Assembly (NCBI GenBank): GCA_046484245.1
Contig: JAWOBN010000073.1
Coordinates: 19,465 to 83,464, forward strand
Direction of reading: 5' to 3'
DNA: 64,000 nucleotides
Source: a bacterium
GTDB taxonomy: Bacteria; Hydrothermota; 32-111
The notes under the pieces are model-generated. The model ran no database searches and had not been told where the DNA came from. It saw only the letters and a list, made by a program, of their open reading frames with translations. The translations under genes were made by a program, and so were the position numbers. Shown in pieces: positions 2,770 to 38,568 of the stretch; the first letter of the stretch is position 1, and every line of letters begins with the position of its first letter.

Positions 2770-2770
2770 T

Positions 2771-9057: not shown

Positions 9058-9087
9058 CATTGATGTTATTCGCATTATAATTGTTCT

Positions 9088-14951: not shown

Positions 14952-15925
14952 AGAGAATATTATTGCTCTTATCACTGATTCTCTTTATTACGGGTCTTTA
15001 CCCGGATACTGAAGGGATACTGGAAATATATCCCACTTCAGCAGGCATGGCAATGTCAGGCAATACAATAAGCAGTGAATTTGCCGGATACGGTGTATTC
15101 TTCTACAACCCTGCATTGAGACATAAAGATCATTCAATGAGCATATACTATGAGCACAAATTCCTCACAGGGAATCTGTCTCAGTACAATTCAGCCTTTA
15201 TTACACTGCCTTCAATCAAGAATATCAATGCACAGATAGGTTATCTAAATCAAATTATAGGGGATATACCTGTCTATCCAGAATTCCCCACAGATGTGGA
15301 TTCTGTTGATTTTGACCCTCTGGGGTATTTTTCCGACAATGCCAATATCATTCTTTTCAATATAGGGTATGACCTTGATCCCGGAGAGTACAGTGTATAT
15401 GACATTAGTGCAGGATTCAATATCAAATATATCTATCATAGGATTTATGACTATACGGGACAGGGATCTTCTATTGATGCCGGCAGCATAGTGAGATTGT
15501 ATCCCGGCCGTTTCACCTCTAAAATAGGAGGTGTGATAAAATGGTCATTAGTTGTGAAAAACCCCGGCGGCCTGTCAGTAAAATGGGACACCCCGTCAGC
15601 AACAGTCAATAGAAGAAACATGAATATTTTTACAGGACTGGGTTATTCCAATGAGATAAGAATGATTGATTCGGAGGTTTACACTGAAGTCAATTATTCA
15701 ACTGCAGAGAATGCTATGCTGGGTATATCAGGCGGTTTGACATTCCGTCAATTCATCAGTGTTTATTCCGGATTGAATATAAGAAAGGATTATTCGGATG
15801 ATTATGCCATATCCGCCCCGGGTGGAGGAATCAGTATAAGCACTATCGGATTTGATGTCTATTATTCTATATCAGGTTCGGATCTGGGAATGAATCACTC
15901 AATCGGAATTGGCTATTCACTATGA
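14948..15925 (+). CDS. Outer-membrane beta-barrel protein, possibly T9SS-associated (PorP/SprF- or PorQ-like)
   Basis: 325 aa with a signal peptide (MKRILLLLSLILFITG), alternating amphipathic beta-strands and a C-terminal aromatic-rich barrel closure (IGIGYSL). It overlaps the upstream T9SS cargo gene by 4 nt. Confidence 0.45.
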   Translation: MKRILLLLSLILFITGLYPDTEGILEIYPTSAGMAMSGNTISSEFAGYGVFFYNPALRHKDHSMSIYYEHKFLTGNLSQYNSAFITLPSIKNINAQIGYLNQIIGDIPVYPEFPTDVDSVDFDPLGYFSDNANIILFNIGYDLDPGEYSVYDISAGFNIKYIYHRIYDYTGQGSSIDAGSIVRLYPGRFTSKIGGVIKWSLVVKNPGGLSVKWDTPSATVNRRNMNIFTGLGYSNEIRMIDSEVYTEVNYSTAENAMLGISGGLTFRQFISVYSGLNIRKDYSDDYAISAPGGGISISTIGFDVYYSISGSDLGMNHSIGIGYSL

Positions 15926-16914
15926 ACAAACAGATGAATGATAAGCTGATAGTGATTGCAGGCAATAATCCCGATGAGGCAAAACCCCTTATCAAAAGGA
16001 TGAAGGAACAGTATATTGACCCCGGTTTTACTGAATTTGATTTCCTGGAAGTTTACGGTGATGATATTGAAATTGAGGAATTGAGCAATACACTGTTGTC
16101 CATTCCCATGGTATCAAGCAGGAGAATTGCAGTAATACTGAAAGGATTCTCTATTACTGATAGCCAGGCAGCTGATATTACACACACAGTAGATGAAATG
16201 CCTGAGTGCAATACATTGATAATAAATTATGCTGATGAAGAATCCACATACTCCTCCAATATGAGAGAAGCAGCCGGAATGTTCCCCGATGCGCGCTTTG
16301 TGAAGACATACAGGCAGGACACAGTGGACGAGGGATTTGTGCGCAGAGCAATGAATGCAGAAGGAATAGAACTCTCCAATGACAGTATTGAAACCATTAT
16401 GCATATATCAGACGGTGACCGCATAATAGCTGATAATCTTATCAAGATAGCCTGGATGGTAAACAGCAATGATACATTCAGACGGATTGTGGATGATAAG
16501 ACAACATTTGATTCTGCTCCATTCATGCATTATGATTTCCTCAGCAGTTTTTTCCTCAAAAACCCAAATAGATGCTTTACATTTTACAGAAAACTTGTAA
16601 AATGGAATGTGCTGGATGAGGACAGGATAGTCATGATGCTTCTTTCCAATATCAAGAAGACCATGACTCTCAAGTTTAATTATGAAACAATAGATAAGGA
16701 AAGTATTGATTTGACAATACCGGTGAAGAACAAGAGTTCCGGGAAATACTCCCAGCTGAGAAGAGAAAAGGAAATCATTCTCAGCAAATGGGGCATGGAT
16801 GAACTGCAGCATGCATACTGCAGAATATATGATGTGCTGAGAAAGTTCAGGACAATACCGAAGAAATTTGCAATTCTGAATTTTGAAGAAACATTAATTG
16901 ATATATTAAATTAG
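15922..16914 (+). CDS. holA: DNA polymerase III delta subunit-like protein
   Basis: 330 aa. The N-terminus (LIVIAGNNPDEAKPLIKRM...EFDFLEVYGDD...EELSNTLLSIPMVSSRRIAVILKGF) follows the HolA pattern. Not verified by search. Confidence 0.5.
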   Translation: MNKQMNDKLIVIAGNNPDEAKPLIKRMKEQYIDPGFTEFDFLEVYGDDIEIEELSNTLLSIPMVSSRRIAVILKGFSITDSQAADITHTVDEMPECNTLIINYADEESTYSSNMREAAGMFPDARFVKTYRQDTVDEGFVRRAMNAEGIELSNDSIETIMHISDGDRIIADNLIKIAWMVNSNDTFRRIVDDKTTFDSAPFMHYDFLSSFFLKNPNRCFTFYRKLVKWNVLDEDRIVMMLLSNIKKTMTLKFNYETIDKESIDLTIPVKNKSSGKYSQLRREKEIILSKWGMDELQHAYCRIYDVLRKFRTIPKKFAILNFEETLIDILN

Positions 16915-16923
16915 GGGGCAAGT

Positions 16924-17805
16924 ATGGATTTTAAACAATTGATGCAGGAGAAACAGGATATAGAGAATAAAATCCGTAAACTGGAGAATATGAAGCAGGA
17001 CATAAAACCTCAGGTTTATGAGAAGATCAAGAGTGATTATAATGACAGACTCAATGACCTTGAGAATAATATCAAACAGAATACTGAAGCGATTATGCAG
17101 GAGAAAGCCAATATTGAGCATGAGATTGAGGAACTGGACAATTTGTCGGAAGAGCTTGAGACAGAATTGCAGGAGATAAGGGTAAGGATACAGCTTGGTG
17201 AATACAGTGAGGAAGAATATACAGATAAACTGAAAGAGAAAGAAGAAAAACTCAATGACTATAAATTACGCAGGGATCAGCTCACAATCAAGCTCAATGA
17301 ATACAGTATGATAATTGAGCAGGAAGGGGTGCCGGATGAAGATAATGAAATTCCCGAGGATGCCTCTGCTGCTATTATGCCGGAAGAAGATAAAACCGAA
17401 GAAACAGAAGAATTGGAAGAGAGTATTCCCGATATTGCAGAGCAGACTGCAGATGAGGATCAGCTTGGAGCAGAGCCGGTCAGTGATGTGGGCAGTGAGA
17501 TAAGGGAAGAAGAAGATATAAACGAGGATGAAGAAAATCCCCTCAATGACATACTTCAGCCCGCACTGCAGGAGAATGACAATGAGGATGCTGATGAGAG
17601 TGCGGAATACACTGAAGATGACGATAAGGATGAATCAGAGGGAATTGAACCCATAGACACGGGTCTGGACCAGTTCCTTGAAGAGGAGAATGAAGGGGAT
17701 GAAGAAGATAAGACAATGGAGGGCCTGAAGTGTCCAAAATGCGGGCATATCAATGACCCCAACAGTATTACCTGTGAGAAATGCGGAACTGATCTTTTCT
17801 CTTAA
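16924..17805 (+). CDS. Hypothetical coiled-coil, highly acidic protein with a C-terminal zinc ribbon
   Basis: 293 aa: an N-terminal heptad-rich coiled coil, an Asp/Glu-rich low-complexity middle, and a C-terminal CPKCG...CEKCG zinc ribbon. An AGGGGGCA ribosome-binding site lies upstream. Confidence 0.6.
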   Translation: MDFKQLMQEKQDIENKIRKLENMKQDIKPQVYEKIKSDYNDRLNDLENNIKQNTEAIMQEKANIEHEIEELDNLSEELETELQEIRVRIQLGEYSEEEYTDKLKEKEEKLNDYKLRRDQLTIKLNEYSMIIEQEGVPDEDNEIPEDASAAIMPEEDKTEETEELEESIPDIAEQTADEDQLGAEPVSDVGSEIREEEDINEDEENPLNDILQPALQENDNEDADESAEYTEDDDKDESEGIEPIDTGLDQFLEEENEGDEEDKTMEGLKCPKCGHINDPNSITCEKCGTDLFS

Positions 17806-17810
17806 AATGG

Positions 17811-19172
17811 ATGATATCTAAGAAAGCTTCCTTCTATACATTCAGTATTTACATAAATACTGTTCTGGGCGCATTACAGGGAATTGTAGCAGCCCGGCTC
17901 CTTGATCAGTATTACATGGGGTATTTCTCCCAGATCAAGGTAATCCTCTCATATCTGCTCATGATAAATTTCGGCATAATCAATGGATTGCTTATTGTTC
18001 TTCCCAAAGCAGACAAACAGAAGAGGATGGAGTATGTATCAACTGCATTCTGGCTCAGTCTGGGGCTATATGCAGTCGGTGCAGCCGCATTTCTGATTGT
18101 ATTCTTTATCACAGGCGATTATATTCATCTCTATATTGCATTGATATTCCCTATTTACGGAATTAAAGAGGTTCCTGTCTATATAATGAGGGGCAAGGGG
18201 GATTTCCGCAAACTTGCAGTATTGTATATACTGATTTCATCCATCTCTTTTCTATCCATTTCCCTGTTCATATATTTCTTTAAATTCAAGGGCGCATTGG
18301 CAGCACTGGCTTTTAATGTGACTGCCTATCTTGTACTGGGAATTATTACAGGCCGCATTGATATTAAATTTAAGATAATAAAAGACAGGGCTAAGGAATT
18401 ACTGAAGAGAGGCATTTACATTTATCTTATTGAATTCTTCAGATTCATCAAACGGTCAATGGAAAAATTTGTAATGATATTCATTATTTCGCGTGAGGTA
18501 TATGCAGTATATACTGTCGGAATAGTCATGGTGTCATTCTTTGATATTATGCCTTCCACAATCTTCCAGTATCTGCTCCCTGATTTTATTAGGGAGAATA
18601 AGAAATGGTCACTGGAAAAAATGGGCACTATGATATCATTTGTAACAGCAATTATGACTGTGCTGCTTCTTATCGGAATGTATTTATTCACAATACTGGT
18701 ACCGCTTATTATACCGGGTTATGAGCAGTCACTCAGCATATTCTATCTGCTCACGTTTACATCCCTTATCAATATATGGAATTATATTATTTACAATAAA
18801 TTTGTTTCCGAAAACAAGATAAAATATATGTATATATCCCAGTTTACAGGCCTCTTTGTCCTTCTGGGACTTATAGGACTGGGTTATTTTATTTTCAATA
18901 CTGATTTCTCCAATATTATTATTATTGCAGCACTGATTCTTACTGCCCGCTCATCGTATATTGTATCTCTGGTTTTTCTCTTTATAAAAAAGACAAAGAT
19001 CAATATACTGAGCACCTTTTCCTTTCCCATGACAATAATCAGCATATTGACAATAGTGCTGGCAATATACCTTATATATAATTTCATACATATTCTCCCT
19101 ATTGTAATCATTGCTTATATCATTCTATTTTACAGAAGGTTTTTCAGATGGAAAGAACAGTTGACCTCATAG
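17811..19172 (+). CDS. Polysaccharide flippase (Wzx/MOP superfamily)
   Basis: 453 aa with about 12-14 predicted TM helices and a Wzx-like N-terminal region. Located in a glycosyltransferase cluster. Confidence 0.5.
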   Translation: MISKKASFYTFSIYINTVLGALQGIVAARLLDQYYMGYFSQIKVILSYLLMINFGIINGLLIVLPKADKQKRMEYVSTAFWLSLGLYAVGAAAFLIVFFITGDYIHLYIALIFPIYGIKEVPVYIMRGKGDFRKLAVLYILISSISFLSISLFIYFFKFKGALAALAFNVTAYLVLGIITGRIDIKFKIIKDRAKELLKRGIYIYLIEFFRFIKRSMEKFVMIFIISREVYAVYTVGIVMVSFFDIMPSTIFQYLLPDFIRENKKWSLEKMGTMISFVTAIMTVLLLIGMYLFTILVPLIIPGYEQSLSIFYLLTFTSLINIWNYIIYNKFVSENKIKYMYISQFTGLFVLLGLIGLGYFIFNTDFSNIIIIAALILTARSSYIVSLVFLFIKKTKINILSTFSFPMTIISILTIVLAIYLIYNFIHILPIVIIAYIILFYRRFFRWKEQLTS

Positions 19173-20008
19173 TTGTCCTGTACAATAATGCGGAGTTCTT
19201 TTTCAGGAACAATTACAGTACACTGACAAATAATAATATCAATATCATTGCTGTGGACAATAATGACAACAGCAGACTTATGGAGGAATATACTGATATT
19301 CAGTATATTAAACCGCGCGGCAATATCGGCTACGGCAGTGCTGTCAATGCGGGGTTCTCCGAGGTCAGATCCCCATACACTATTGTATGCAATGATGATA
19401 TTGTAATATCCCCCGGCAGTATAGAGCACATTGTTGAAAGGATTCCCTATTACAGCAGAAACGGATACTCAATAGTAGGATTCAATGTATATTCGCCTGA
19501 TTCCCGGCGCAGAGGCGTGCATAGAGCAATCTACAATCCTTATGTCATCCTGTATCACAATTCATTTATACCTGCAATTCTCTCACTCTTTTCCGGTCAA
19601 TCAGGATATGCCGGTGTATTTGAGACAATGCATTATCACAAATCATCCAAACATGTACGCGGTGTATCCGGTTCATGCTTTATGGTCAGCAGCAGTGATT
19701 TCAGGGCATTGAATGGTTTTGACAGCAATTACTTTCTCACATATGAGGAGATTGATCTCTTCAGGCGGTTCACATTGAATAAACGCATTATATACTATGA
19801 CAGAGATATACTGATCAAACATCTGCACGGATTCACCTCACAGAGAATAATGCTTACCCAGGCATACAGGTCAATGTCCTATTTCCTCTCCAAATACTAT
19901 AAGAATATCAAAAATCCCGTGGAGATACTTGTTCTTTTCTGGTTAATAATAAAATCATTCCTCACAGGTGACACATATGCATTCAGGAATTTTCTTAACA
20001 GAAAATAG
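19148..20008 (+). CDS. Glycosyltransferase family 2
   Basis: The N-terminal VDLIVVLYNN and a DxD-like motif (VCNDDIV) are typical of GT2 Rossmann-type enzymes. Length 286 aa. Confidence 0.6.
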   Translation: MERTVDLIVVLYNNAEFFFRNNYSTLTNNNINIIAVDNNDNSRLMEEYTDIQYIKPRGNIGYGSAVNAGFSEVRSPYTIVCNDDIVISPGSIEHIVERIPYYSRNGYSIVGFNVYSPDSRRRGVHRAIYNPYVILYHNSFIPAILSLFSGQSGYAGVFETMHYHKSSKHVRGVSGSCFMVSSSDFRALNGFDSNYFLTYEEIDLFRRFTLNKRIIYYDRDILIKHLHGFTSQRIMLTQAYRSMSYFLSKYYKNIKNPVEILVLFWLIIKSFLTGDTYAFRNFLNRK

Positions 20009-21308
20009 ATACCGGCTCATACTGCTGATACTGATTACAGCTGTAAGCCCCCTGCTTCCCGTTCGGGGTATGACAGAGGGTATGTTCATTATTGCATTTC
20101 TACTGCTCATTCTCATTGTGTCACGGCACCTGCTGGGCAATCATTCACTGTTCATTGTTATTATGCTTCTATACGGCATATTCTCCCGCCTTATATTCTA
20201 CAGTGCAGGGGGTATGCAGTACAATCCCGTATTCCTCCTTCCTGATATATATATAATTATGTATATAGATGAATTGATTCATGCGCTGAAGGATATGAAT
20301 AGATACAAGAGGGCGGGCCTTCTGGCATTTATAATACTATCTGCAGTTTACTCCACATTGCTCAGTCCCGGAGATATTATTGTTCAGGCGATTTCACTGA
20401 ATATACTGATAATACCCCTGCTGTTCTTTCTGATAGTAGGCAGTGTCAAGAAAATTATTGACATAATGGAGATAATGGCGCCATTTATAATCGGATACGC
20501 AGTACTGCACTTTGCAGGCATACTGCCTGTATTTGATGCTTACTGGATTGATGTGAATCATATGAATACATTTGACTCAATTAAAGTGGGTGGTATTATG
20601 CGGCCCCTTGCATCATTTACATCTGTTGAAGAACTCGGCATATTTCTCATGCTGCTGATGGTAATCCCCTTTTACAGAAGGACAAAATATACTCTTATAA
20701 TGGGAATAACCGCATTATCAATGCTGCTCATATTCTCCATACGCATGCCCTTGATGATTTTTTTGGCTTTCGTGGTTTTATTCCTCATAAGCAGGCGGCA
20801 GTATAAGATTCTCGGTGTCACAGTACTTATAATTACAGGAATATCAATAATGGTCAGCCGTTCTGATATAATGAAACCCATTCATTCCAGTGAAACGGGT
20901 ATGGATGTTATTGTAAGACATACACTGGAGCCATTTGGCAATATATTCTCATCCTATTCCCTGGAGAAGAGGATTGTAACAGCACACAGGAATATTGAGA
21001 TAATAATGGAAAATCCCGCGGGCCTGGGTTTCAATGCAAACCCGAGGATTATGGAACATAAGAAAAATATACACGAAGCTGAAAGCAGTTTCATCCAGCT
21101 TGTATTGGGAGGCGGCATACCAATGCTGATATTCCTTGCAGGCGTATATATTGTATCCGGGATAAGTATCTTGAGAAGCAGATTCGGATTAAAAAGCGGT
21201 CTGCTTTTTATCTCTCTTCTCCTTATAATGTTCACGCATGCACTATCCCTTCATTTTATAGGTCCGCTGGTATATCTTTGTATAATAAGGGGGAATTATT
21301 TTGAATAG
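19968..21308 (+). CDS. Polytopic membrane protein, O-antigen polymerase/ligase (Wzy/WaaL)-like
   Basis: 446 aa with about 10-12 TM helices and a larger loop near the C-terminal third. Assigned from its position within the polysaccharide locus. Confidence 0.4.
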   Translation: MTHMHSGIFLTENRYRLILLILITAVSPLLPVRGMTEGMFIIAFLLLILIVSRHLLGNHSLFIVIMLLYGIFSRLIFYSAGGMQYNPVFLLPDIYIIMYIDELIHALKDMNRYKRAGLLAFIILSAVYSTLLSPGDIIVQAISLNILIIPLLFFLIVGSVKKIIDIMEIMAPFIIGYAVLHFAGILPVFDAYWIDVNHMNTFDSIKVGGIMRPLASFTSVEELGIFLMLLMVIPFYRRTKYTLIMGITALSMLLIFSIRMPLMIFLAFVVLFLISRRQYKILGVTVLIITGISIMVSRSDIMKPIHSSETGMDVIVRHTLEPFGNIFSSYSLEKRIVTAHRNIEIIMENPAGLGFNANPRIMEHKKNIHEAESSFIQLVLGGGIPMLIFLAGVYIVSGISILRSRFGLKSGLLFISLLLIMFTHALSLHFIGPLVYLCIIRGNYFE

Positions 21309-22578
21309 ACCAATGGAAATACTGGAGAGACAGAGACAGGCAACTGCACGGAGTATTGAATATACCGACAATTTGATTCAACCGAGCAGTCAGCTGAAAA
21401 TATTCCAATATTCATTATTATGGACAGTTTACAGAACAATCACTGATGAGGACTACAGGTTCAGGCCGAAAATGTCCAGACCGGCAATACTTTTCAGCGG
21501 GCAGTTGCCGCCTGACAGGTATTATCTGCATTCAGGCAATATCCCCGGGAGTATTATTGAAGCATTTGAAAAGAACCATATTCACGGTATGGACCTGAGA
21601 CTGACGGGAATGGGAATTGGTTATATTATTTCCGGAGCCCTTAAATTCCCCCGTTCATTCAAGTATAAAAATATCTATCAGATAAAAGACAGTATAGAGA
21701 CAGAGCGCAGTATCAGAGACCTTATCAATTCAAATATTGTTGATATTGAGAGATTCTCATCAGTATTGGACAAATTGTTCTGTGAGAAAAAACCCCTCTT
21801 CATACTGCTTGACCAGGACAGGACAAAATTCAGACGGATTATTGCAATGAAGGCGCATCAGCATTCAATTCCTGTCTATGTGATTCAGCACGGGATGACA
21901 CCTGCCTGCACTGACAACAGTATCCCGTTTGCAAATGAATCATTCTTTCCCATTCACTGTGACAAAATCTTCACCTGGGGCAGACATGCTGCTCAATACC
22001 TGATAGAGGGCGGGGTAAATCCCGAAAATATCATTGAGGCGGGCAATCCGTATATACCCGATATTGATGACAGTATCCGCCCTTCAGGGGAACTGCTTGT
22101 TATTGACCAGCAGTTTGAGGGCCAGGAGGAGGAGAGAGAATTCTCATACAGAAAGCTCACGGATGCTCTGGAGTCATCAGGCAGAGAATACAGCATATAT
22201 CTGCGCAATGATTATAACCGGGAGTTCCTTACGAAGATAGCAGGCAAGGGAAGAGTGCTTTCATGGTCAAAGGACAGTGCAGCAGCAAATATGCTGAAGC
22301 ACTGTATCACACTGGGGTTTTACTCATCTGCATTAATAGAATCCATTGCTCTTAACAGACCTGCTGTTGCATGCGACTTTATGGGCAGAGGCAATGTAAT
22401 GGGATTTGAGGGCAGGGGACTGTTCTATGCAGACAGCAGTGATTTTGAAAGGAGTATAGAGCAGGCGCTGGAAATATCAGGAAGAGCAGATCTCAGCCGG
22501 ACACTGCAGAGATTCTGTACCAGAAGAGGTCCGGATGCGGGGAGATTCATTGCACGGAGTATCATGGAGATGTTATGA
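21301..22578 (+). CDS. Uncharacterised polysaccharide-biosynthesis protein (possible GT-B-like or capsule-biosynthesis fold)
   Basis: 425-aa soluble protein embedded between Wzy-like and GT4 genes, with start and stop overlaps on both sides. I recognised no clear motif. Confidence 0.45.
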   Translation: MNRPMEILERQRQATARSIEYTDNLIQPSSQLKIFQYSLLWTVYRTITDEDYRFRPKMSRPAILFSGQLPPDRYYLHSGNIPGSIIEAFEKNHIHGMDLRLTGMGIGYIISGALKFPRSFKYKNIYQIKDSIETERSIRDLINSNIVDIERFSSVLDKLFCEKKPLFILLDQDRTKFRRIIAMKAHQHSIPVYVIQHGMTPACTDNSIPFANESFFPIHCDKIFTWGRHAAQYLIEGGVNPENIIEAGNPYIPDIDDSIRPSGELLVIDQQFEGQEEEREFSYRKLTDALESSGREYSIYLRNDYNREFLTKIAGKGRVLSWSKDSAAANMLKHCITLGFYSSALIESIALNRPAVACDFMGRGNVMGFEGRGLFYADSSDFERSIEQALEISGRADLSRTLQRFCTRRGPDAGRFIARSIMEML

Positions 22579-23612
22579 ATATAACATTCATTGACCTTTC
22601 CGTGCACAGAGGCGGAGCAGAGCTGTCACTGGAGAGTCTTGCGCATGCACTGGAAAAAAAACATAATATTACAATTATTGCTCCCCGGGGGACCCGGATC
22701 AATGCTGACACCGGATTCATACTGCTGAGAGGCAGCAGGTGTTTTACTCAATCCAAGAGAGGCGCACGCGCACTGCTTGCAGGATTAAAAATACTAATGC
22801 TCGGCATGACATCCAAGTGCCGTAATCTGATCATAAGCAATACATTCAAGGCTCACATAATGGGAGCAGGCATGAAGCTGACAGGCAGGGCTGAACACTG
22901 GATTATTATTGAGAGGGATGTGCCGGAGAATATCATCATACGGTTGATCAAACGGATACTGCATTATGCTGCAGACAGCACTGTTTTTATATCAGAATTT
23001 CTGAGAAAACAGTATGGCAAAAGTGATGGTATTGTTATCGGCAATATTGTAGAATCCGTAGAGTGCAGTAAAGAGTACCGCAGCCCGTACAGGCTTCTCT
23101 TTGCCGGGGATCTCACCTATCAGAAGGGGCTGGACAGGGCAATTGAGGTATTTGACGAATTGAGAAAGACAGACAGACGGTTTGAACTGACAGTAGCGGG
23201 CGCATCTGTCTCATATTCCGGGCAATCGCCTGTAAAAATAAAAAGAGGTATTCATTATGAGGGTTATACGGATAGGTCCCGACTTTACTCCAATGCAGGT
23301 TTTATCATTCTGCTCAACAGGAAAACAGAGAGCTTCTCCAGGGTTGTTTTTGAGGCAATGAAATGCGGCATTGTCCCTGTGATTTTGAAGGGCAATGGTA
23401 TGGATGACTATACAACTGATAATGTCAATGCACTCAAGTTCACCGGGTATCTGCCTGATGAAATAAGCCGGCGGATTATCAGCACAATTGAATCCGGTGA
23501 TTATGAGAAGATGAGGAATAATCTGGGGCATGCATTTGAGTACAGAGAGGGTGTTCATGTGAAAGAACAATGGCTGGAATTGATTGAACAATTCAGTACC
23601 GGGCAAACTTGA
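22575..23612 (+). CDS. Glycosyltransferase family 4
   Basis: The C-terminal ESFSRVVFEAMKCGIVPVI matches the GT4 E-x7-E region. Length 345 aa. Confidence 0.65.
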   Translation: MNITFIDLSVHRGGAELSLESLAHALEKKHNITIIAPRGTRINADTGFILLRGSRCFTQSKRGARALLAGLKILMLGMTSKCRNLIISNTFKAHIMGAGMKLTGRAEHWIIIERDVPENIIIRLIKRILHYAADSTVFISEFLRKQYGKSDGIVIGNIVESVECSKEYRSPYRLLFAGDLTYQKGLDRAIEVFDELRKTDRRFELTVAGASVSYSGQSPVKIKRGIHYEGYTDRSRLYSNAGFIILLNRKTESFSRVVFEAMKCGIVPVILKGNGMDDYTTDNVNALKFTGYLPDEISRRIISTIESGDYEKMRNNLGHAFEYREGVHVKEQWLELIEQFSTGQT

Positions 23613-23655
23613 CAAAAACATATTAATTGATACTCTTAAATAAAAAGGAGGATAC

Positions 23656-24123
23656 ATGAAGAGATTCACTTTACCGGCAATTGTAGTACTCATTATTGCA
23701 GGTTGCACTTTACTCAATTTCCTTCCCTCAGGTGAACTGACATTTGATAAATTCTACGACTTGGACAATGGGGTGCAGATTGACCCTAATGGTGATAATC
23801 TCAGTGACGCTGACCTGATACTTGAGCCATGGTATAAAGACGGCGAACCTGCACCTGCTCTGCAGCTCTACAGCTGGGGCGACAATGCCACATTCATTCA
23901 TGATCTCGGCGAGATATCACTGGACAAGGCGCTGAGTATGTCAGACAGTGAGATTGAACCTGACAGTATTGAGTGGGATGTATATGTTAACCAGTCACAT
24001 ACCTACTATATTGTAACATCCGAGATGAATGAATTTTTCCTCTATGTCTCTGATGTGGAGATTCAGGAGGATGAAACCACATACGAAGCCACAGTAAAAT
24101 TCAATTATCAGCAGAGAAATTAA
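23656..24123 (+). CDS. Hypothetical lipoprotein
   Basis: Signal peptide with lipobox (LIIAGC); AGGAGG ribosome-binding site upstream; 155-aa acidic protein. Confidence 0.55.
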   Translation: MKRFTLPAIVVLIIAGCTLLNFLPSGELTFDKFYDLDNGVQIDPNGDNLSDADLILEPWYKDGEPAPALQLYSWGDNATFIHDLGEISLDKALSMSDSEIEPDSIEWDVYVNQSHTYYIVTSEMNEFFLYVSDVEIQEDETTYEATVKFNYQQRN

Positions 24124-24127
24124 CAGA

Positions 24128-24147
24128 GGGCGGCCTGCCGCCCTTTT
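24128..24147 (+). terminator. Rho-independent terminator (GGGCGGCctGCCGCCC + TTTT)
   Basis: A GC hairpin at 24128-24143 followed by TTTT, immediately after the lipoprotein stop. Confidence 0.55.
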
Positions 24148-24941
24148 CATTTAATTGCTTTCATGGAAAACATCAGGGGTATCTTCTTCTTAAAACCCGG
24201 TATATGCCAGTATCCGTCTTTATTCTGTTTCATGAACTGAGTTGTTTTATAGAATGTATGGTCAAATTCATTGAAAAACTCTACTCTAAGACAGGCTGTT
24301 GATGCAGCATTGATGATGTCCGAAACAGACCATATCCACTCATACGAAGGATATGAGAGTTTTCTGTCCTCAGCTGAATAATCCGCATTATCATCCCATT
24401 TTACCGGATTTTCATTGTGGAAATAATCCATTGATATTCTGACTGATGCATCCTCTTCATCAATAGTCATCAGCACGGGATGCGTATCCCTCACATAGAC
24501 AAATCCCCCCGGTTTCAGTAGTGATCCAAGGTCCCTGAACAATCCGTATAGATCACTGTTCCAGCATAATACTCCCCGGCTTAAATATACTATATCAAAA
24601 GTGCTGTCAATAACTTCCGTTAGCTCACTGTTATCTGACACAATAAATTTGCTATTGCTGTTTGTTTTTACAGCAAGTTCTCTTGCAATATCTATTGATT
24701 TCTCGGAAAAATCCGTTCCTGTAACATGAGCACCTTCATATGCAAGTGAAATGGAATCTGTTCCAATATGGCATTGGATATGAAGAAGTGCTTTATCCCT
24801 GATATCACCGAGTTCATTTTTTTCATTCTCTTTTATGATGCTTTTGCCTGACAGCACTGTTTTGATCTCATCATATGAGTTTCTGTGAATTTCAGCCATC
24901 TCATCCCACATCTCTCTATTGTTTCTGATAAAATCATTCAT
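24147..24941 (-). CDS. Class I SAM-dependent methyltransferase
   Basis: Motif I (HIQCHIGTDSISLAYEGAHVTGTDFSEKSIDIAR) and a post-I acidic residue identify the Rossmann-fold methyltransferase family. Length 264 aa. Confidence 0.7.
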   Translation of the reverse strand: MNDFIRNNREMWDEMAEIHRNSYDEIKTVLSGKSIIKENEKNELGDIRDKALLHIQCHIGTDSISLAYEGAHVTGTDFSEKSIDIARELAVKTNSNSKFIVSDNSELTEVIDSTFDIVYLSRGVLCWNSDLYGLFRDLGSLLKPGGFVYVRDTHPVLMTIDEEDASVRISMDYFHNENPVKWDDNADYSAEDRKLSYPSYEWIWSVSDIINAASTACLRVEFFNEFDHTFYKTTQFMKQNKDGYWHIPGFKKKIPLMFSMKAIK

Positions 24942-25104
24942 GATATTCCTTTTTAGAGTATTATATCATTGATCTCCATTTGTTCAATATTATATCTTTC
25001 CTCATCAAAAAATCATATAAAACCATATAGATGTCACCTGCCCCCCTCTTCTTTGCATGATGAATTCTCAATAATCATCAGTCAGTCTATCATATACCTT
25101 CAAT

Positions 25105-25144
25105 CCAAATCCCGGGGACGACCCTTGCAATTCATGCAAATTGC
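25105..25144 (+). repeat. Intergenic repeat copy 1 (core CCAAATCCCGGGGACGACCCTTGCAA)
   Basis: Near-exact reverse complement of copy 4 at 25699-25740, which reads ...CAAGGGTCGTCCCCGGGATTTGG. Confidence 0.8.
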
Positions 25145-25355
25145 GGTTCTTCTCCAAAATAGTTGGCTGATTCATCCGGAAACACTTATTATTCATTAAA
25201 TTAAGCAGTATTACAAATCGCAAGTACTATATGTACTCTCATAATTTTTCTTTAGCTTCTTAATTATACAGAACGATCATGATTATGCATGACCAGCCCG
25301 CATCTTAAATCTAATTTCAACATCTGTCCTTTTGTCCCATATTTTGTAAAAACAC

Positions 25356-25396
25356 CCTCCAAATCCCAGGGACGTCCCTTTATATCTGCAACTTCT
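25356..25396 (+). repeat. Intergenic repeat copy 2 (CCTCCAAATCCCAGGGACGTCCCTTTAT)
   Basis: Same core as copy 1 with one A/G difference. It forms an inverted pair with copy 3, about 125 bp away. Confidence 0.8.
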
Positions 25397-25480
25397 ATGT
25401 TAAATTATTACTCAACTTATGATTCGCTGTTTTCTAATTAAAGTTATTGTATAACTTACAATTACTTAATTTTGTAAATT

Positions 25481-25522
25481 CTTGCAATTGTAAAGGAACG
25501 TCCCCGGGATTTGGGCAAAATG
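25481..25522 (-). repeat. Intergenic repeat copy 3, inverted orientation (TTGCAATTGTAAAGGAACGTCCCCGGGATTTGGGC)
   Basis: Reverse complement of the core seen in copies 1, 2 and 5. Confidence 0.8.
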
Positions 25523-25698
25523 TTATGTAATTTTATAAATAACTGGTTTTAGGGTGTGTTTTCAGCCGTTTTACAGTTTATTCTCTAATATTTCACGCTT
25601 TGTTCATTGAGAAGTCATCTTTCTTGTATTCTGTATCTCTTTTTACCAACTCTTTTGGAGAAGAACCTTAACAATGTAAGTTAATAATAGCAGAACTA

Positions 25699-25767
25699 AA
25701 ATTGCATGAATTACAAGGGTCGTCCCCGGGATTTGGCAGGTAGTTTTGACCAAAAAAGGGTAAAAGG
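25699..25767 (-). repeat. Intergenic repeat copy 4, inverted, with an extended roughly 50-nt block (…GTCCCCGGGATTTGGCAGGTAGTTTTGACCAAAAAAGGGTAAAAGG)
   Basis: Core plus a downstream block shared with copy 6 at 35355-35420. Ends about 75 bp upstream of the ORF starting at 25841. Confidence 0.8.
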
Positions 25768-25840
25768 ACAAATGTGAAAATAGACTTGTGATGCATTGAC
25801 TACTCTGCTGTATTGATTAAAATAATGGAAAAGAGGATAT

Positions 25841-27037
25841 ATGATAATACCGTTGTGTATCAGGGATACTGTTGAGAGGATCCCTCTATTTTCAATAATA
25901 ATAATCTTAATGATCATATTTGTGTTCTGGCAATATCCTGCATTGAGATATATACCCTGGATTGAACATGAATTCATTCAGAATCTTGAAACAGAAAAAT
26001 TTATCAAGATAACCGGAATGTCTCATCTGCTCTCCCGAAGCAATGGATTCAATACATCAAATATCCTGCTGTCACTATTCAGCAGTCAGTATATACCTCA
26101 ATTCATTCTGAATCTATGGCTTGCCGCTGTTCTGCTTCCATTTATTGAAAACCGCACAGGCAGGGTTCCTTTTGTATTACTCTATATGTTTTTCTTCATG
26201 ATTGTATATGCAGTTGCGCGGACAGGCCTTTATTACAATGATTACCCTTTTCCCTTCAATCAGGGTATTTTACTGCTTTTTACAGGGTATTTCTATTCAA
26301 TGTATTTCTCCATGAAAATAAGGGTATTGTATTTCCTGGGTCCATTGAAATCACTTAAGGGTATAGTCGATTATCCTGCATCTGCTGTTATACTGCCACT
26401 CTATTTTGTTGTTCAGATCATAATTATAAGCATAGTAATGTTACGCAGGGATATACTTTTCCTTCCTACAGCCGGAATGCTGGTCAATATGTTATTTTGT
26501 CCTGTAATAGGTGCAATGACAGGATATATCATAAAGCGTATTCCCACTGTTAAGGTCATTGATAAATATCTAAGAAGACCGGATTCCTATCTCACTGCTG
26601 TAGATGAGAAAGAACAGGAGAATATTGAACTGTTGATTAATGGTGATAAAGAACAGAAAAAAACTGCCCTGAATAGCCTGGAAAGCAGTTTCATATCTAA
26701 ACCGGATACCAATATATTGAGTACATTATTTGAATATCACTGTAAGAAAGGCAATAAAGAGCATGCATTGAAATTGATCAGGTATTTCCTCAGTAAACCG
26801 GATAGTGATGATATATCAGAGCTCAGTGATATTATCAGCATCATTGAAAAGAATGCGGGCATTGATTTCATAAACAGCTTGGATGTAAAAAGCAGGATCA
26901 AAATCATCAAGGCATATTATCTGCTAAACAGATACGAGGAGGCACGGCAGCTCATGAGGTATCAGGAGGATAGTGAAAACAGTAAATCATATCAGTCATT
27001 AGTGAAGTTTTTTGAAAAGGAATATTTTATATGGTGA
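25841..27037 (+). CDS. Polytopic membrane protein with a C-terminal TPR-like soluble domain (hypothetical)
   Basis: 398 aa: about 7 N-terminal TM helices, then a soluble region with TPR-like helical pairs (KIIKAYYLLNRYEEARQLMRY). Confidence 0.5.
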   Translation: MIIPLCIRDTVERIPLFSIIIILMIIFVFWQYPALRYIPWIEHEFIQNLETEKFIKITGMSHLLSRSNGFNTSNILLSLFSSQYIPQFILNLWLAAVLLPFIENRTGRVPFVLLYMFFFMIVYAVARTGLYYNDYPFPFNQGILLLFTGYFYSMYFSMKIRVLYFLGPLKSLKGIVDYPASAVILPLYFVVQIIIISIVMLRRDILFLPTAGMLVNMLFCPVIGAMTGYIIKRIPTVKVIDKYLRRPDSYLTAVDEKEQENIELLINGDKEQKKTALNSLESSFISKPDTNILSTLFEYHCKKGNKEHALKLIRYFLSKPDSDDISELSDIISIIEKNAGIDFINSLDVKSRIKIIKAYYLLNRYEEARQLMRYQEDSENSKSYQSLVKFFEKEYFIW

Positions 27038-27171
27038 CATATCATTGCAGTTGTAACAATTTGTCATAATCCTCTATTTATAAACCTTATTATAATACAG
27101 CTTATGAAAGGCATTGATTTTGCAAGGGTAAATGGTGTTGAACTTTAAATCATAAAGGATATATTTAATAT

Positions 27172-27852
27172 ATGACTGGAACATTAATAAATGCAGGAGC
27201 TGTAATAGCCGGCTCAATCATAGGACTTCTATTGAACAGAAGATTGCCTGAGAAAATAACAAAGGCTGTATTTATACCAATAGGTCTCTTTACAATTTTT
27301 CTCGGTATCAAGATGACAATCAATACACCGAATATATTAATACTTGTTTTATCTGCTGTGAGCGGTACTTTGATAGGTGTCCTTATCAATCTCAATCATG
27401 CAATTGACAGCATTGGAGAGAAATTGAAGCAACTGTTAAAGGCAACAAATAAACATTTTACAGAGGGGCTTGTAACTGCTTTCCTCATTTTCTGCATGGG
27501 TTCACTGACAGTTCTCGGTGCATTTGAGGAGGGGACAGGCAATTTCCCCGATATACTGCTGACCAAATCCATAATGGACGGCTTTACCTCAGTAATACTT
27601 GCTGCTTCAATGGGCATTGGTGTAATGCTCTCTGCAATCCCCCTGCTTATATATCAGGGACTTCTCACCTTGTTTGCGGGTTCACTCACCGGTCTTATTA
27701 CTCCTGATACTGTCAGTCAGATATCAGGTGCAGGCGGCCTGATGCTTCTGGGACTCGGTATTGAGATACTGGAAATTAAAAAACTGAATATTGTCAATAT
27801 GCTGCCCTCACTTATTATTGCAGGGGTTCTGGCATATTTCTTTGTGGGGTGA
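27172..27852 (+). CDS. DUF554 (YqgA-like) family membrane protein
   Basis: The N-terminus MTGTLINAGAVIAGSIIGLLLNRRLPEKI and overall 226-aa six-TM layout match the DUF554 family. Confidence 0.65.
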   Translation: MTGTLINAGAVIAGSIIGLLLNRRLPEKITKAVFIPIGLFTIFLGIKMTINTPNILILVLSAVSGTLIGVLINLNHAIDSIGEKLKQLLKATNKHFTEGLVTAFLIFCMGSLTVLGAFEEGTGNFPDILLTKSIMDGFTSVILAASMGIGVMLSAIPLLIYQGLLTLFAGSLTGLITPDTVSQISGAGGLMLLGLGIEILEIKKLNIVNMLPSLIIAGVLAYFFVG

Positions 27853-28532
27853 TTATGAAAAAAATGATATTACTGATGCTTATCATTATTTCAACAGCAG
27901 TGCACTCACTGGAAATAACTTCATATGAGATACCTGATTACAGTAATGATCTGCCGCTTGACAGTTTCACTGACATGGCAATAGACGGAAGTACAGGGAA
28001 TCTATGCCTTACAGGACCGGGGGTGTGGTGTGAAATACCACTGAAGGGTAATGAGCCTGATTGGGATAGATCTTTTACTGCATCAACAGGGGAGTATCAA
28101 TTGACAGTTGTTGCAGGCAGGAACAATGGTGTGACTGTTTTTGACAGGTATAATTATTCAGTAATGGATGAAGAGAATGTATATGCAGCAGACCACTGGG
28201 GTATTGAACCATCCTGTATGGAATATTCCGGTTATGTTCTGCTTATCGGCAACAAGGAGGGTACTGTGTCCTCATGGGAAATAAGGAGAGGTACAATTGA
28301 GATGATTTCCCATACAGATTGTTCAATAATACTTACAGGCATTGCATCTGCAGTGAATACTGTCTTTCTCTCTGATTCCAATTATATATACAGATGCGAC
28401 AGTGACTACAATATTGAGAAACGGTTTGAGACGGATTTTGCAATAAACGGTATTGCTGCATCTGACAGTGTACTCTGGGCTGTTGGTATGAATGAGAATA
28501 GAATCTACAGGATAGAGGGAGTGTATCAGTGA
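27849..28532 (+). CDS. Secreted hypothetical protein
   Basis: Signal peptide (MKKMILLMLIIISTAVHS), Cys-containing and beta-rich, 227 aa. It overlaps the neighbouring genes at both ends. Confidence 0.5.
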   Translation: MIMKKMILLMLIIISTAVHSLEITSYEIPDYSNDLPLDSFTDMAIDGSTGNLCLTGPGVWCEIPLKGNEPDWDRSFTASTGEYQLTVVAGRNNGVTVFDRYNYSVMDEENVYAADHWGIEPSCMEYSGYVLLIGNKEGTVSSWEIRRGTIEMISHTDCSIILTGIASAVNTVFLSDSNYIYRCDSDYNIEKRFETDFAINGIAASDSVLWAVGMNENRIYRIEGVYQ

Positions 28533-29410
28533 CACATTCTCATGAACACAGTGGAGAAATAAGGAATGTGGGAATTGCATTCATACTTAACTTTGTTTTT
28601 ACAATCATTGAAATTGCCGGGGGGCTATGGACAAATTCAACTGCAGTACTTGCAGACGCATTGCATGATCTGGGTGATTCACTGTCAATAGGCCTTGCAT
28701 TTATAATGGAGAAATTGTCCGGCAGGAGCAGGGATGAGCATTTTTCCTATGGTTACGGCAGATTCTCGCTCCTCTCTGCTTTGATAAACGGCATTGTTCT
28801 GATAAGCGGGTCTGTTATCATACTTGTTCATGCTGTACCGAGAATCATTGATCCGCCTGATGTGAATCCGCAAGGAATGATTCTGCTGGCAGTAATGGGC
28901 ATTATATTCAATGGCATAGGCGTCCTGCTTATGAAGAGAGGCAGTACTGTCAATCAGCAGATGCTTGTGCTTCATCTGCTTGAGGATTTGCTCGGATGGG
29001 CAAGTTTGCTCATTATAAGTATTATCATGGCTATTTGGTATATACCTGTGCTTGATCCGGTATTCTCTGTTATTTATACTCTGGTAATACTTGTTAATGT
29101 CGGCAAATTGCTCTACAAGACAATGAAGCTCTTTCTTCAGGGCATACCTGCTGATGTTGATATTGATACCATAGAGGAGAATATACTCTCACTGGAGGGT
29201 GTTGAGGATGTGCACGATATTCATGTCTGGTCCCTCAATGGCAGGGAGAATATTCTGAGTCTTCATGTAGCTGTCTCGTGTGATGTCAGGAGGCATCAAT
29301 TCCCGGAATTGAAGGACAGTATAAGGCAGATATTGAGTAAGGAATCCATAGATCATTCAACAATTGAGATTGATGTTGAAGATGAGAGCTGCAGTTTCAG
29401 GACATGCTGA
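28529..29410 (+). CDS. Cation diffusion facilitator (CzcD/ZitB-like) metal efflux transporter
   Basis: His-rich N-terminus (MTHSHEHSGE), the TM2 motif ADALHDLGDS, six TM helices and a C-terminal cytoplasmic domain. Confidence 0.85.
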   Translation: MTHSHEHSGEIRNVGIAFILNFVFTIIEIAGGLWTNSTAVLADALHDLGDSLSIGLAFIMEKLSGRSRDEHFSYGYGRFSLLSALINGIVLISGSVIILVHAVPRIIDPPDVNPQGMILLAVMGIIFNGIGVLLMKRGSTVNQQMLVLHLLEDLLGWASLLIISIIMAIWYIPVLDPVFSVIYTLVILVNVGKLLYKTMKLFLQGIPADVDIDTIEENILSLEGVEDVHDIHVWSLNGRENILSLHVAVSCDVRRHQFPELKDSIRQILSKESIDHSTIEIDVEDESCSFRTC

Positions 29411-34873: not shown

Positions 34874-35225
34874 TTGTCCTCCTTATATTAAATTAATTAT
34901 ACGGATTGATGAAAATTTATCAACATAAAATAACTATATGTAATTCCCCAAAAAAAATGTCCCCTTAAATTACTATTAAAAAATGTCCCTTTTTGAGAAA
35001 AAGGATATCCCATCACCACACAATATATACGGATAATGCACTAAGTATCACAATAAATGGTAGGGGTTCAACAATTTGAACCTGATCCAAATTTCCCGAC
35101 GCATCACGCAAAACGCAGTTCGCACAACGATAATGGACGGAGGGTTAAGATACAAATGGATTCTATGCGAAACTGCACAAAACCCTCTGCAACCTCAGTT
35201 AAAACTTAAATTACATACTATTCTC

Positions 35226-35278
35226 TCCAAATCCCAGGGACAGCCCTTTACATTATTTACGTTTGACAAAATAAACGG
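35226..35278 (+). repeat. Intergenic repeat copy 5 (CTCCAAATCCCAGGGACAGCCCTTTACAT + TTTGACAAAAT)
   Basis: Same core as copies 1 and 2. Reverse complement of the core of copy 6, about 130 bp downstream. Confidence 0.8.
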
Positions 35279-35354
35279 AATATAAATGCTGCAATAAATA
35301 AATTTAGAAAATATGGTATTGTAAGTTCAGAAATAATTAAATATAATTGTAAAC

Positions 35355-35420
35355 GATGTAAAGGGCTGTCCCCGGGATTTGGAGGTTTGTTTTGACAAAA
35401 TGAGGTGAAGAGGCAGATGG
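35355..35420 (-). repeat. Intergenic repeat copy 6, inverted, with extended block (ATGTAAAGGGCTGTCCCCGGGATTTGGAGGTTTGTTTTGACAAAATGAGGTGAAGAGG)
   Basis: Shares about 50 nt with copy 4, including a TTGAC(A/C)AAAA box. Lies about 160 bp upstream of the GGDEF-NTPase-TPR gene. Confidence 0.8.
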
Positions 35421-35581
35421 AAGTATCCGCATATACTGCAAACCGAATGACAGAAAGGTGTAATAAAGTCAAAGAGGCAGGCACGCGATAGCTATCTGTA
35501 TGACTCAGGGGACATTTTATGAGGGTTAATATATTATTAAAATGGTATTGAAATAATTTACTAAATCAATATAATGTATCT

Positions 35582-38041: not shown

Positions 38042-38568
38042 AAATCAATTCAACGACAATACTGGGTGTAAGGAAAGACGGCAAGACAGCAATCGGAGGC
38101 GACGGGCAGGTAACACTGGACAAGACTGTTATCAAGCACTCTGCAAATAAGATAAGACGCCTCTACAATGACAAGGTGCTGGCGGGTTTTGCCGGGTCTG
38201 TGGCAGATGCAATAACCCTGTTTGACAAATTTGAGAAATATATTGAAAAGGACAAGGGCGATCTCCTCAGGGCATCCATTGACCTGACCAAGGAGTGGAG
38301 GCAGGATAAATTCCTCAGGCGTCTTGAGGCAATGCTGATTGTAATGGACAGTGAACATTCTCTCATAATCTCAGGTAATGGTGATGTCATTGAACCGGAT
38401 GACGGTGTTGTATCCATTGGTTCAGGCAGCCCCTATGCATATGCTGCTTCACGCGCACTCATTAAGCACTCAGAACTCACTGCAGAGGATATTGTAAAGG
38501 AATCCCTCTCAATTGTTGCCGATATATGCATTTATACAAACAACAGGATTATACTGGAAACACTCTGA
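38038..38568 (+). CDS. hslV: ATP-dependent protease subunit HslV
   Basis: [22 protein letters not shown]...[19 protein letters not shown]...GSGSPYA...ICIYTNN is a close match to HslV. The catalytic Thr is preceded by 5 residues (MKINS), so a propeptide or an alternative start is needed. Confidence 0.9.

Follow-up and report, generated by a model that had tools for sequence, protein, structure and literature searches.

Systems that join hairpin-forming doublets of repetitive extragenic palindromes (REPs), known as REPINs, to REP-associated tyrosine transposases (RAYTs) are already known, as are MITEs (miniature inverted-repeat transposable elements) of the ISL3 family and insertion sequences that target REPs. 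Here, we compare with them a locus in a 64-kb stretch of DNA (hereafter, the window; from contig JAWOBN010000073.1), in which four copies of a short repeat form nested inverted pairs between positions 25105 and 25736, in the spacer between a methyltransferase gene and an open reading frame (ORF) for a 398-aa protein. The region is very probably a pile-up of two nonautonomous mobile families, a REPIN-like 156-bp doublet and an ISL3 MITE, nested together; such selfish DNA is of a generally known kind, here in a lineage that has hardly been studied, candidate division WOR-3. New are (i) the WOR-3 lineage; (ii) the architecture of the associated transposases, a Y1 domain with a helix-turn-helix (HTH), with many diverged paralogs and matching arm subtypes; (iii) a 156-bp doublet with conserved outer flanks; and (iv) a MITE that both carries a doublet and prefers to land in one.

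The doublets share with REPIN–RAYT systems (PMC5581495) short, invariant, extragenic repeats arranged as fixed-size inverted doublets with a spacer and forming long hairpins; a cognate HUH-Y1 gene with inverted copies of these repeats on its two sides; the coexistence of multiple arm subtypes and multiple transposase paralogs in one genome; units that persist at orthologous sites across species; and proteins whose best structural and NCBIfam matches are to RayT. They depart from those systems in their phylum (WOR-3, whereas described cases are mostly from Proteobacteria), in their protein (~270 aa, with an extra C-terminal HTH and a score below the RAYT equivalog cut-off), in the number of diverged transposase paralogs per genome (at least six, versus one to three), and in that many copies are spread as passengers of another transposon. 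RAYTs have been characterized as single or low-copy, housekeeping-like genes (PMC5581495).

IS200/IS605 elements and palindrome-associated transposable elements (PATEs) resemble the system in their Y1 HUH fold, in being defined by hairpins, in leaving no target duplication, and in having functional ends that probably lie outside the hairpins. IS200/IS605 elements have different subterminal hairpins at their two ends, insert 3′ of a set tetra- or pentanucleotide, and often bear a tnpB gene. The arms here are instead near-perfect inverted copies abutting the start and stop codons of the gene; a tnpB partner was not seen; and the gene copies have diverged as old paralogs, unlike the near-identical copies of an insertion sequence. 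Correia elements of Neisseria are extragenic units of ~100 to 156 bp with inverted termini, often near promoters, and they duplicate TA; to our knowledge, they have no Y1 partner. The bacterial interspersed mosaic elements (BIMEs) of Escherichia coli are mosaic combinations of repeat modules, and we know of no sequence relationship of either Correia elements or BIMEs to the doublets. The MITE, for its part, is like ISL3 elements and their MITEs in its ISL3-type termini, its 8-bp AT-rich duplications, and its remnant of a transposase C terminus with the stop codon in the terminal repeat, and unlike ISL3 MITEs in carrying a foreign hairpin element and in markedly favoring that element's loops. 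The targeting of REP palindromes by insertion sequences has been amply documented (Tobes & Pareja 2006, PMC1525189; ISPpu9, PMC8450116), and here, too, a transposable element lies preferentially within host palindromic units, giving rise to nesting; the documented invaders are autonomous (IS3, IS110), whereas the present one is a nonautonomous ISL3 MITE that carries a copy of its target.

Anatomy of the locus and its nearest relative

The core of the repeat, CCAAATCCCRGGGAC, occurs exactly at 25105–25119 and 25359–25373 on the forward strand and at 25500–25514 and 25722–25736 on the reverse strand, which agrees with an earlier description of the region made from the letters alone (hereafter, the sequence-only reading), in which the first two copies were direct and the last two inverted. 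Six exact cores are present in the 64 kb, and nine copies are found when up to two mismatches are allowed, versus 0.16 expected and a number reached in none of 100 shuffles of the window; a third inverted core pair, at 35227 (forward) and 35368 (reverse), had not been listed in that reading. The outer arms (38 nt, 95% complementary, 556 nt apart) are near-exact reverse complements, as had been described, and the sequence that they were said to share as a flank, TTGCAATTCATGCAA, is a portion of the arms themselves. The inner arms measure 33 nt (85% complementary, 90 nt apart) and those of the third pair, at 35225–35260 and 35349–35384, measure 36 nt (92% complementary); from end to end, each of these two pairs spans exactly 156 bp. 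Conserved sequence extends beyond the arms by ~40 nt on one side and by up to ~100 nt on the other. The divergent intergenic spacer, estimated earlier at about 900 bp, measures 899 bp (24942–25840) between the methyltransferase gene (24147–24941, reverse strand; Pfam Methyltransf_25) and the ORF that begins at 25841, and no protein-coding feature underlies the repeats, as the sequence-only reading also held.

A second, unrelated inverted repeat, GGTTCTTCTCCAAAATAGTTGG, of 22 nt (95%), which the sequence-only reading had overlooked, lies at 25145–25166 and 25646–25667 and is the key to the nesting, being the true terminus of the inserted element. The suggestion that one miniature element sits inside another was, in this respect, right as to the nesting and wrong as to the boundaries: the inserted element is delimited by the 22-bp repeat (25145–25667) and not by the inner pair (Table 1).

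Only two relatives of the 398-aa protein exist among 5.8 billion proteins, namely, itself (locus tag R6U31_05465) and a protein, 80% identical, of the candidate division WOR-3 bacterium MAG71_tar_biofilm (JAXHVG01, GCA_034189245.1; hereafter, MAG71), such that MAG71 is the sole available comparator. We examined 174 kb of MAG71 sequence (comparison contigs, whether from MAG71 or from metagenomes, bear L-numbers). One MAG71 contig, L003, is collinear with window positions 21114–29250 at 83 to 86% nucleotide identity, and the bacterium from which the window derives is closely related to MAG71. Between 25104 and ~25795, almost each base has 2 to 38 matches in MAG71 contigs, and the whole block, beyond the four ~30-nt repeats, is therefore derived from repeats. 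The match count declines between 25780 and 25797, past the outer A flank (the A and B flanks are the conserved stretches on the two sides of a doublet), which ends just short of the conserved promoter region of the 25841 gene (promoter-like site at 25796–25823); at the third element, the count is zero from 35420 onward. The promoter-like sites of both genes flanking the repeats lie just outside them and are conserved in MAG71, and the elements appear to be tolerated in the interval between the promoters without supplanting them. Within the doublet loop, TTGACA boxes are present, with no −10 element at the proper spacing. Searches of viral contigs, plasmids, and phages returned no match.

The hairpin doublets and the Y1 transposase genes

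A scan of a collection holding one genome per species with the pattern CCAAATCCCRGGGACNNYCCTT (the core plus the downstream CCTT) matched 40 contigs, 33 from MAG71 and 7 from unrelated organisms, where ~4 matches were estimated to arise by chance. Many of the core matches in MAG71 fall within ~150 nt of a contig end. In the window and the matched contigs together, none of 67 cores lies inside an open frame of at least 150 codons, though such frames make up 83% of the sequence. The count of copies, which the sequence-only reading had proposed as a check, is thus that of a multicopy and extragenic repeat: the core is a dispersed, strictly extragenic family and not a local regulatory palindrome.

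Uninterrupted inverted doublets number 17, 14 of them exactly 156 bp long, and consist of inverted arms starting with CCAAATCCCRGGGAC-NN(N)-CC(C)TT on either side of an AT-rich loop. Across 13 units, the first 15 positions and the CC(C)TT are invariant, whereas stem positions 16–18, 23–25, and 32–33 covary; the arms pair at 82.5% of cells, versus 75.5% in shuffles (none of 500 reaching 82.5%), changes on both sides are found in 13 of 36 pairs, and slid registers of the arms pair at no more than 53%. As single-stranded DNA, the inner doublet folds at −25.8 kcal/mol (z = −5.25) and the third unit folds at −35 kcal/mol (z = −8.06). The family is a mosaic: the B-side arm is often CCAATTCCC; solitary units are marked by a longer B-side end (..AGAATCYATTTGTATCTTAACC); and the third element of the window has a B-side end, ..ATTTGTATCTTAACCCTCCGTCC, in common with L001, L008, L013, and L038. 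The A flank (~40 nt, ..CATCTGTCCCTTTACCCTTATTTTGTCAAAACAACCCT) also accompanies arms adjoining Y1 genes, and that at 25314–25358 recurs beside arms in independent contexts, Y1-gene arms included. The conservation of the A and B flanks outside the arms suggests, by analogy with IS200/IS605, that the functional ends may lie outside the hairpin. A separate candidate, that the A flank (GTTTTGAC...GTTGAAAT) resembles a CRISPR, tracrRNA, or omega-RNA element, was rejected: the flank belongs to a module of a transposon, and genes for cas, tnpB, or iscB were not seen.

Target-site duplications, which the sequence-only reading had suggested looking for around each pair, were found neither at the outer nor at the inner pair nor around any other doublet, as is expected for a Y1 (HUH) or REPIN-like class of element.

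The enzymes of that class are encoded in the same lineage. A tblastn search with E. coli RayT retrieved a partial gene at the end of L010, with its stop codon ~30 nt from a core; its open frame reads ..GHVFQGRFGSEP..NYIHYNPVKASIV.., followed by an HTH, and in NCBIfam it matches NF047646, REP-associated tyrosine transposase, and nothing else. Full-length relatives are ~270 aa long and contain Pfam PF01797 (Y1_Tnp) and the extra C-terminal HTH, and their HUH histidines and catalytic tyrosine align with those of RayT. An AlphaFold model (mean pLDDT 72.9) has as its best fold match in the PDB entry 4er8, RayT bound to a REP hairpin (E value 3.4e-7, target TM 0.72), followed by the TnpA proteins of IS608, ISDra2, and IS200. 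As phmmer found no match for the protein among PDB sequences, the relationship to RayT is visible there only by fold search. The Y1 superfamily is large (21,943 representatives at an E value of ≤0.001), with 33 members reaching an E value of 1e-30.

These genes are bracketed by the arms. In L162 (MAG71), the Y1 gene at 525–1337 lies between perfect 38-nt inverted repeats, TCCAAATCCCAGGTCCGGTAGTTGCATAGGTTGCAGAA, which begin with TCCAAATCCCAGG (TCCAAATCCC), and in L163, whose Y1 protein is 60% identical, the gene lies between CCAAATCCCAAGTACAGTAGTTGAAT... inverted repeats; no tnpB gene was seen in either contig. The inverted repeats in L163, L164, and L168 span 28 to 60 nt, those of L164 and L168 (proteins 31 to 40% identical) being of 41 and 28 nt, respectively, and of different sequence. 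All of the seemingly single cores in MAG71 (in L010, L019, L021, L022, and L035) are arms abutting Y1 genes cut by a contig end, and the arm beside the Y1 gene of L021 hardly differs from the arms of the unit in L027, which has no gene. The Y1 copies are diverged paralogs and not recent duplicates, and the assembly of the window itself apparently holds at least seven Y1 ORFs, judged by a shared accession block and organism label. Because the same arms bracket Y1 transposase genes in this lineage, the doublets are gene-less, REPIN-like derivatives of the Y1 transposase cassette.

Two further observations concern the cassettes. The arm upstream of the Y1 gene (L162 470–524, L163 2640–2696, and L021 4495–4568) holds a good sigma-70-like promoter directed into the gene (TTGCAT-17-TATAAT in L162), such that the inverted repeat doubles as the promoter of the Y1 gene. 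A distant Y1-HTH member in L164 (1439–2443; a Paludibacteraceae metagenome-assembled genome) has 41-nt arms that are themselves palindromic (ACTACCAA..TTGGTAGT), with a third copy of the arm within the annotated gene, at 1977–2020.

The ISL3-derived MITE and its insertion sites

The element inserted at 25145–25667 belongs to a second family, bounded by the 22-bp terminal repeat T, GGTTCTTCTCCAAAAGAGTTGG. Its modules run in the order T, a variable stretch of ~110 to 250 nt, the A flank, a forward core, the 156-bp unit, a reverse core, the B flank (ACAGAATGTTATGTAATTGCATAAATAAC...), ~100 nt, and an inverse T. This order is constant across copies, the window MITE matching at least eight sister copies in MAG71, to which it is 72 to 84% identical; the two ends differ just inside T, and complete copies measure 479 to 614 bp. 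An 8-bp AT-rich target duplication is a hallmark of the ISL3 family (ISfinder). Perfect 8-bp duplications flank the copies in L029 (TGATGATA), L034 (TAAAGTAT), and L003 (TAATCCTC), and in all sequence examined, 15 of 34 T-bounded pairs have an AT-rich 8-bp duplication with at most one mismatch (perfect in 9).

In L160, T-type repeats (GGTTCTTCTCCAATTTAGTTGG and GGCTCATCTCCAAATTAGTTGG) enclose a 424-aa ORF with the domains DDE_Tnp_ISL3 (PF01610, E value 6.7e-69), HTH_Tnp_ISL3, and Zn_ribbon_ISL3, and in other metagenome contigs, T adjoins the 3′ end of ISL3 genes. Sister MITEs retain a reading frame ending in ..AYGYIDIQYFELKAKQAFQGKSTN and a stop, which matches the ISL3 C terminus (48.6% over 35 aa by tblastn, E value 0.014); the MITE end in L033 reads ..NKKFIKRHAYGYIDIQYFELKAKQAFQGKSTN and that of the L160 gene reads ..NNKIKVIKRKAYGFHDLRYFTLKIYQAFSN, with the stop codon within the terminal repeat in both. 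In the window copy, this coding remnant is degenerate. The T-bounded element is therefore an ISL3 insertion sequence reduced by internal deletion. A search for the parent of the WOR-3 MITE with the 40-aa remnant gave no candidate. The T repeat itself is widespread in metagenomes (at least 120 contigs, L041 to L160, mostly from sediment), and since most of these T-bounded relatives, at 200 to 320 bp, have no core, A, or B modules, the hairpin unit is a lineage-specific passenger. A 1,588-bp stretch of L063 (2842–4429), with TTATTTAT/TTATTTCT as its target duplication, may represent a further autonomous copy.

Comparison with MAG71, which the sequence-only reading had also suggested, reveals differences in presence and absence of the MITE at orthologous sites, and these run in both directions. 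In L003, a 614-bp MITE with TAATCCTC on either side lies in the spacer from the 398-aa gene to the DUF554 gene, whereas the window has a single, uninterrupted, MITE-free site, CATAATCCTCTATTTATAAACC, at 27065–27086. At the locus considered here, L003 has an intact 156-bp unit (3719–3874; arms GGGACGACCCTTGCAATTCATGC) with the same A flank as the MITE-split outer doublet of the window, whose left part aligns with it once 25145–25667 is removed. Conversely, L015 (MAG71), collinear with both sides of the spacer at 34874–35581, has a unit interrupted by a MITE end where that of the window is intact. Because the doublets are shared and the MITEs are polymorphic at orthologous sites, the doublets were in place before the two genomes diverged, and the MITE insertions came later.

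Doublet loops are the favored landing sites of the MITE. In the window and MAG71, 16 of 28 MITE ends have an outward core within 130 nt, its arm opening toward the MITE, versus a background of 2% of positions even in this core-enriched sample, and the distances from core to MITE end are discrete (31, 40, 50, and 70 nt). Identical junctions occur with opposite MITE ends, both for ..ACAAAAATAAG|GGTTC (L005 versus L033 and L037) and for ..TTTACATCTGC|GGTTC (L012 versus L020); such junctions indicate hot spots rather than a single amplified composite.

Taken together, the loop of an older outer doublet (25105–25144 plus 25668–25736) holds a 523-bp MITE that carries the inner doublet, and the nested inverted pairs result from this position of a doublet-carrying MITE. 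RayT and the TnpA of IS608 act on hairpins in single-stranded DNA. Supplied in trans, a Y1-HTH enzyme would likewise recognize the folded arms in single-stranded DNA and cut and rejoin them, leaving no target duplication, whereas an ISL3 DDE transposase, also in trans, would move the MITE and produce the 8-bp AT-rich duplications; the WOR-3 version of the MITE (~480 to 610 bp) carries one doublet plus its flanks inside. The anatomy, copy number, association with transposase genes, insertion polymorphism, target duplications, and target bias are observations; the biochemical steps are inferred from what is established for HUH Y1 enzymes and ISL3 DDE transposases, and any current activity or effect on neighboring genes would likewise be inferential.

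Table 1. Coordinates, in the window, of the parts assigned to the two families
Feature	Position	Strand	Remarks
Outer doublet, left arm	25105–25144	−	Invariant core 25105–25126; arm to 25142, plus 2-nt loop stub
Inserted ISL3-derived MITE, 523 bp	25145–25667	−	Sense of the lost transposase gene: right to left
MITE terminal inverted repeat, GGTTCTTCTCCAAAATAGTTGG	25145–25166	+	End by the former transposase 3′ end
A flank outside left arm of inner doublet, ..CATCTGTCC..TATTTTGTAAAAACACCCT	25314–25358	+	19 to 20 MAG71 matches
Inner hairpin doublet, 156 bp, MITE passenger	25359–25514	+	Arms 25359–25391 and 25482–25514
B flank outside right arm of inner doublet	25515–25597 (outer limit approximate)	+	15 to 22 MAG71 matches
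MITE terminal inverted repeat, reverse complement of GGTTCTTCTCCAAAAGAGTTGG	25646–25667	−	22/22 to consensus; upstream end of former transposase gene
Outer doublet, loop remainder and right arm (25699–25736)	25668–25736	−	Collinear with L003 3805–3874; left arm to which it pairs, 25105–25142
A flank of outer doublet, CAGGTAGTTTTGACCAAAAAAGGGTAAAAGGACAAATGTG	25737–25781	−	Reverse complement of 25314–25358 at 73%
Third, uninterrupted element	35136–35419	−	B-side end 35136–35226, doublet 35227–35382, A flank 35383–35419
Empty MITE target site, TAATCCTC	27067–27074		Filled in MAG71 (L003 5203–5816), 8 bp duplicated

Competing explanations and significance

In the reading nearest to the sequence-only one, the ~30-nt repeats would be the terminal repeats of classical DDE-type MITEs, and an inner element at 25359–25514 would have transposed into an outer one. 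The inverted termini, constant 156-bp length, high copy number, and extragenic location all suit such an account, and the repeats do belong to nonautonomous mobile elements. However, the doublets have no target duplication, conservation extends 40 to 100 nt outside the arms, the inner pair always lies within the same larger unit with a different terminal repeat and 8-bp duplications, and the only genes found bracketed by the arms encode Y1 (HUH) and not DDE transposases; we consider it unlikely that the repeats are MITE termini of the DDE type. The strength of the hairpins (z = −5 to −8) and the covariation of their arms would instead fit structured noncoding RNA genes, or bidirectional terminator or attenuator hairpins, retained for their function and mobile only incidentally, as would the B side of solitary units, where a small hairpin with covariation precedes a T-rich tract, and the A flanks, which in the outer and third units alike face the start of the downstream gene. 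No Rfam family was found, however: searches against Rfam 15 give only generic matches to plant microRNA precursors, on both strands and far below threshold, and the sole feature of the window that reaches threshold is a tRNA at 51426. Moreover, neither strand is consistently favored by the G-T and A-C mismatches when subfamilies are compared, chimeras whose arms pair poorly have persisted, and the invariant part is a specific sequence, not a shape, and is common to the arms of the transposase genes, all of which makes a functional RNA quite improbable.

Regulation of the divergent genes, whether by a cluster of binding sites (palindrome TCCCRGGGA) or by an invertible promoter switch, appears more improbable still. 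Short overlapping palindromes (CCC-R-GGG and GGGAC..GTCCC) are indeed present in the core, and the pairs lie in promoter-bearing intergenic regions upstream of operons, but dozens of copies adjoin unrelated genes, a dispersed distribution to which regulator sites are a poor fit, and the vicinity has no gene for a recombinase or regulator. The two flanking genes have their promoter-like sites outside the repeats, and the repeat is tied to transposase genes. The switch, in which ~90 nt of AT-rich DNA with promoter-like hexamers would invert between the arms, was rejected on the lack of a nearby recombinase (Pfam annotation identifies none in the 64 kb), on the dispersed copies, and on the orthologous outer unit, which has the same orientation in both genomes.

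Several observations weigh against a nested pile-up of REPIN-like doublets and an ISL3 MITE. The window MITE itself has no target duplication (CAAATTGC versus TTAACAAT, with 6 of 8 positions mismatched), and ~45 nt of the outer doublet loop are missing from the window, such that a secondary rearrangement (recombination between two insertions or an adjacent deletion) or a misassembly at repeats in this metagenome-assembled contig must be invoked. Pfam annotation places no transposase of either class, Y1 or ISL3, in the 64-kb window; neither the window nor the 174 kb of MAG71 yielded an autonomous ISL3 element whose subterminal sequence matches; and L160, with its ISL3 gene, comes from an unrelated metagenome. 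Both comparable doublets occupy the same sites in the window and in MAG71, and the evidence from presence and absence concerns the MITE alone. Certain doublets are chimeras of two arm subtypes whose pairing past the core is poor, so the long perfect hairpin is not always maintained. The full-length Y1 proteins span the whole NF047646 profile at 60 to 72 bits, below its 80-bit cut-off, and the MAG71 sequence has at least six diverged Y1 paralogs (C termini 45 to 78% identical) rather than a single copy. The conserved flanks outside the arms are foreign to a simple REPIN model. Finally, proteobacterial REPs are defined by a 5′ GTAG or GTGG tetranucleotide beside an individually palindromic REP; that GTAG motif is absent here, where the arms start with CCAAATCCC and each hold minimal palindromes only (the two short ones of the core).

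Beyond the pile-up itself, we can offer only tentatively a wider reading, which we think is somewhat doubtful, of two-level parasitism: a MITE that captured a REPIN-like hairpin and homes to the loops of the same element could be movable by both DDE and Y1 enzymes, with the hairpins spreading mainly by hitchhiking. As part of this same tentative reading, REPIN/RAYT-type systems would extend to WOR-3, with at least six Y1-HTH paralogs, each with its own arm subtype.

According to Pfam, the window is otherwise an ordinary chromosome, with TsaD, RNase R, IMPDH, a glycosyltransferase cluster, HslVU, two aminoacyl-tRNA synthetases, trigger factor, ClpP/ClpX, and Lon. The 398-aa ORF (25841–27037), a lineage-restricted orphan with no Pfam domain, heads an operon of genes for DUF554, a cation-efflux protein, a MATE transporter, and a prolyl oligopeptidase. 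On the other side of the spacer, alignment of the MAG71 methyltransferase ortholog ends at the equivalent of window position 24611 (L003 3390–3720 corresponds roughly to window 24611–25104) and is followed by a decayed hairpin unit with a degenerate core at L003 3501; the MAG71 gene appears to have been truncated by a repeat-associated rearrangement. Two 29-nt direct-repeat units, 72% identical, lie directly upstream of the methyltransferase start (24941–24998), and AAAAAATGTCCCYTT occurs twice, 26 nt apart, at 34952–34992; these short direct repeats belong to neither mobile family. Elsewhere, adjacent oxidative-stress genes at 2302–3655 contain unusual fusions (rubredoxin-like plus cupin, 155 aa; desulfoferrodoxin plus rubrerythrin in one 300-aa ORF), and a long same-strand cluster at 7954–24123 combines glycosyltransferases and ORFs with no Pfam domain with a 1,495-aa protein that has a Peptidase_C25 (gingipain-like) domain (10464–14951). 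At 35582–40107, the gene for an 819-aa GGDEF-TPR protein overlaps the start of hslV (38038–38568) by 4 nt, with an HslU-like AAA+ gene next; such linkage of a diguanylate cyclase to the operon of the HslVU protease is unusual.

The finding changes no general principle. It explains a 700-bp “structured” intergenic stretch, together with 35136–35419, as selfish DNA rather than as a regulatory or RNA feature, and it explains the frequent assembly breaks in this lineage, many MAG71 contigs ending in these repeats. An ISL3 MITE that is strongly biased toward hairpin loops and itself carries a hairpin cleanly exemplifies transposon nesting and hitchhiking, and the polymorphic insertions could be used to mark strains of these uncultured bacteria. 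The result is also a sequence-defined REPIN/RAYT-like system outside the well-studied Proteobacteria, with a fused HTH, diverged paralogs, and matching arm subtypes, and it could be a natural test bed for how Y1 enzymes recognize their own hairpins.

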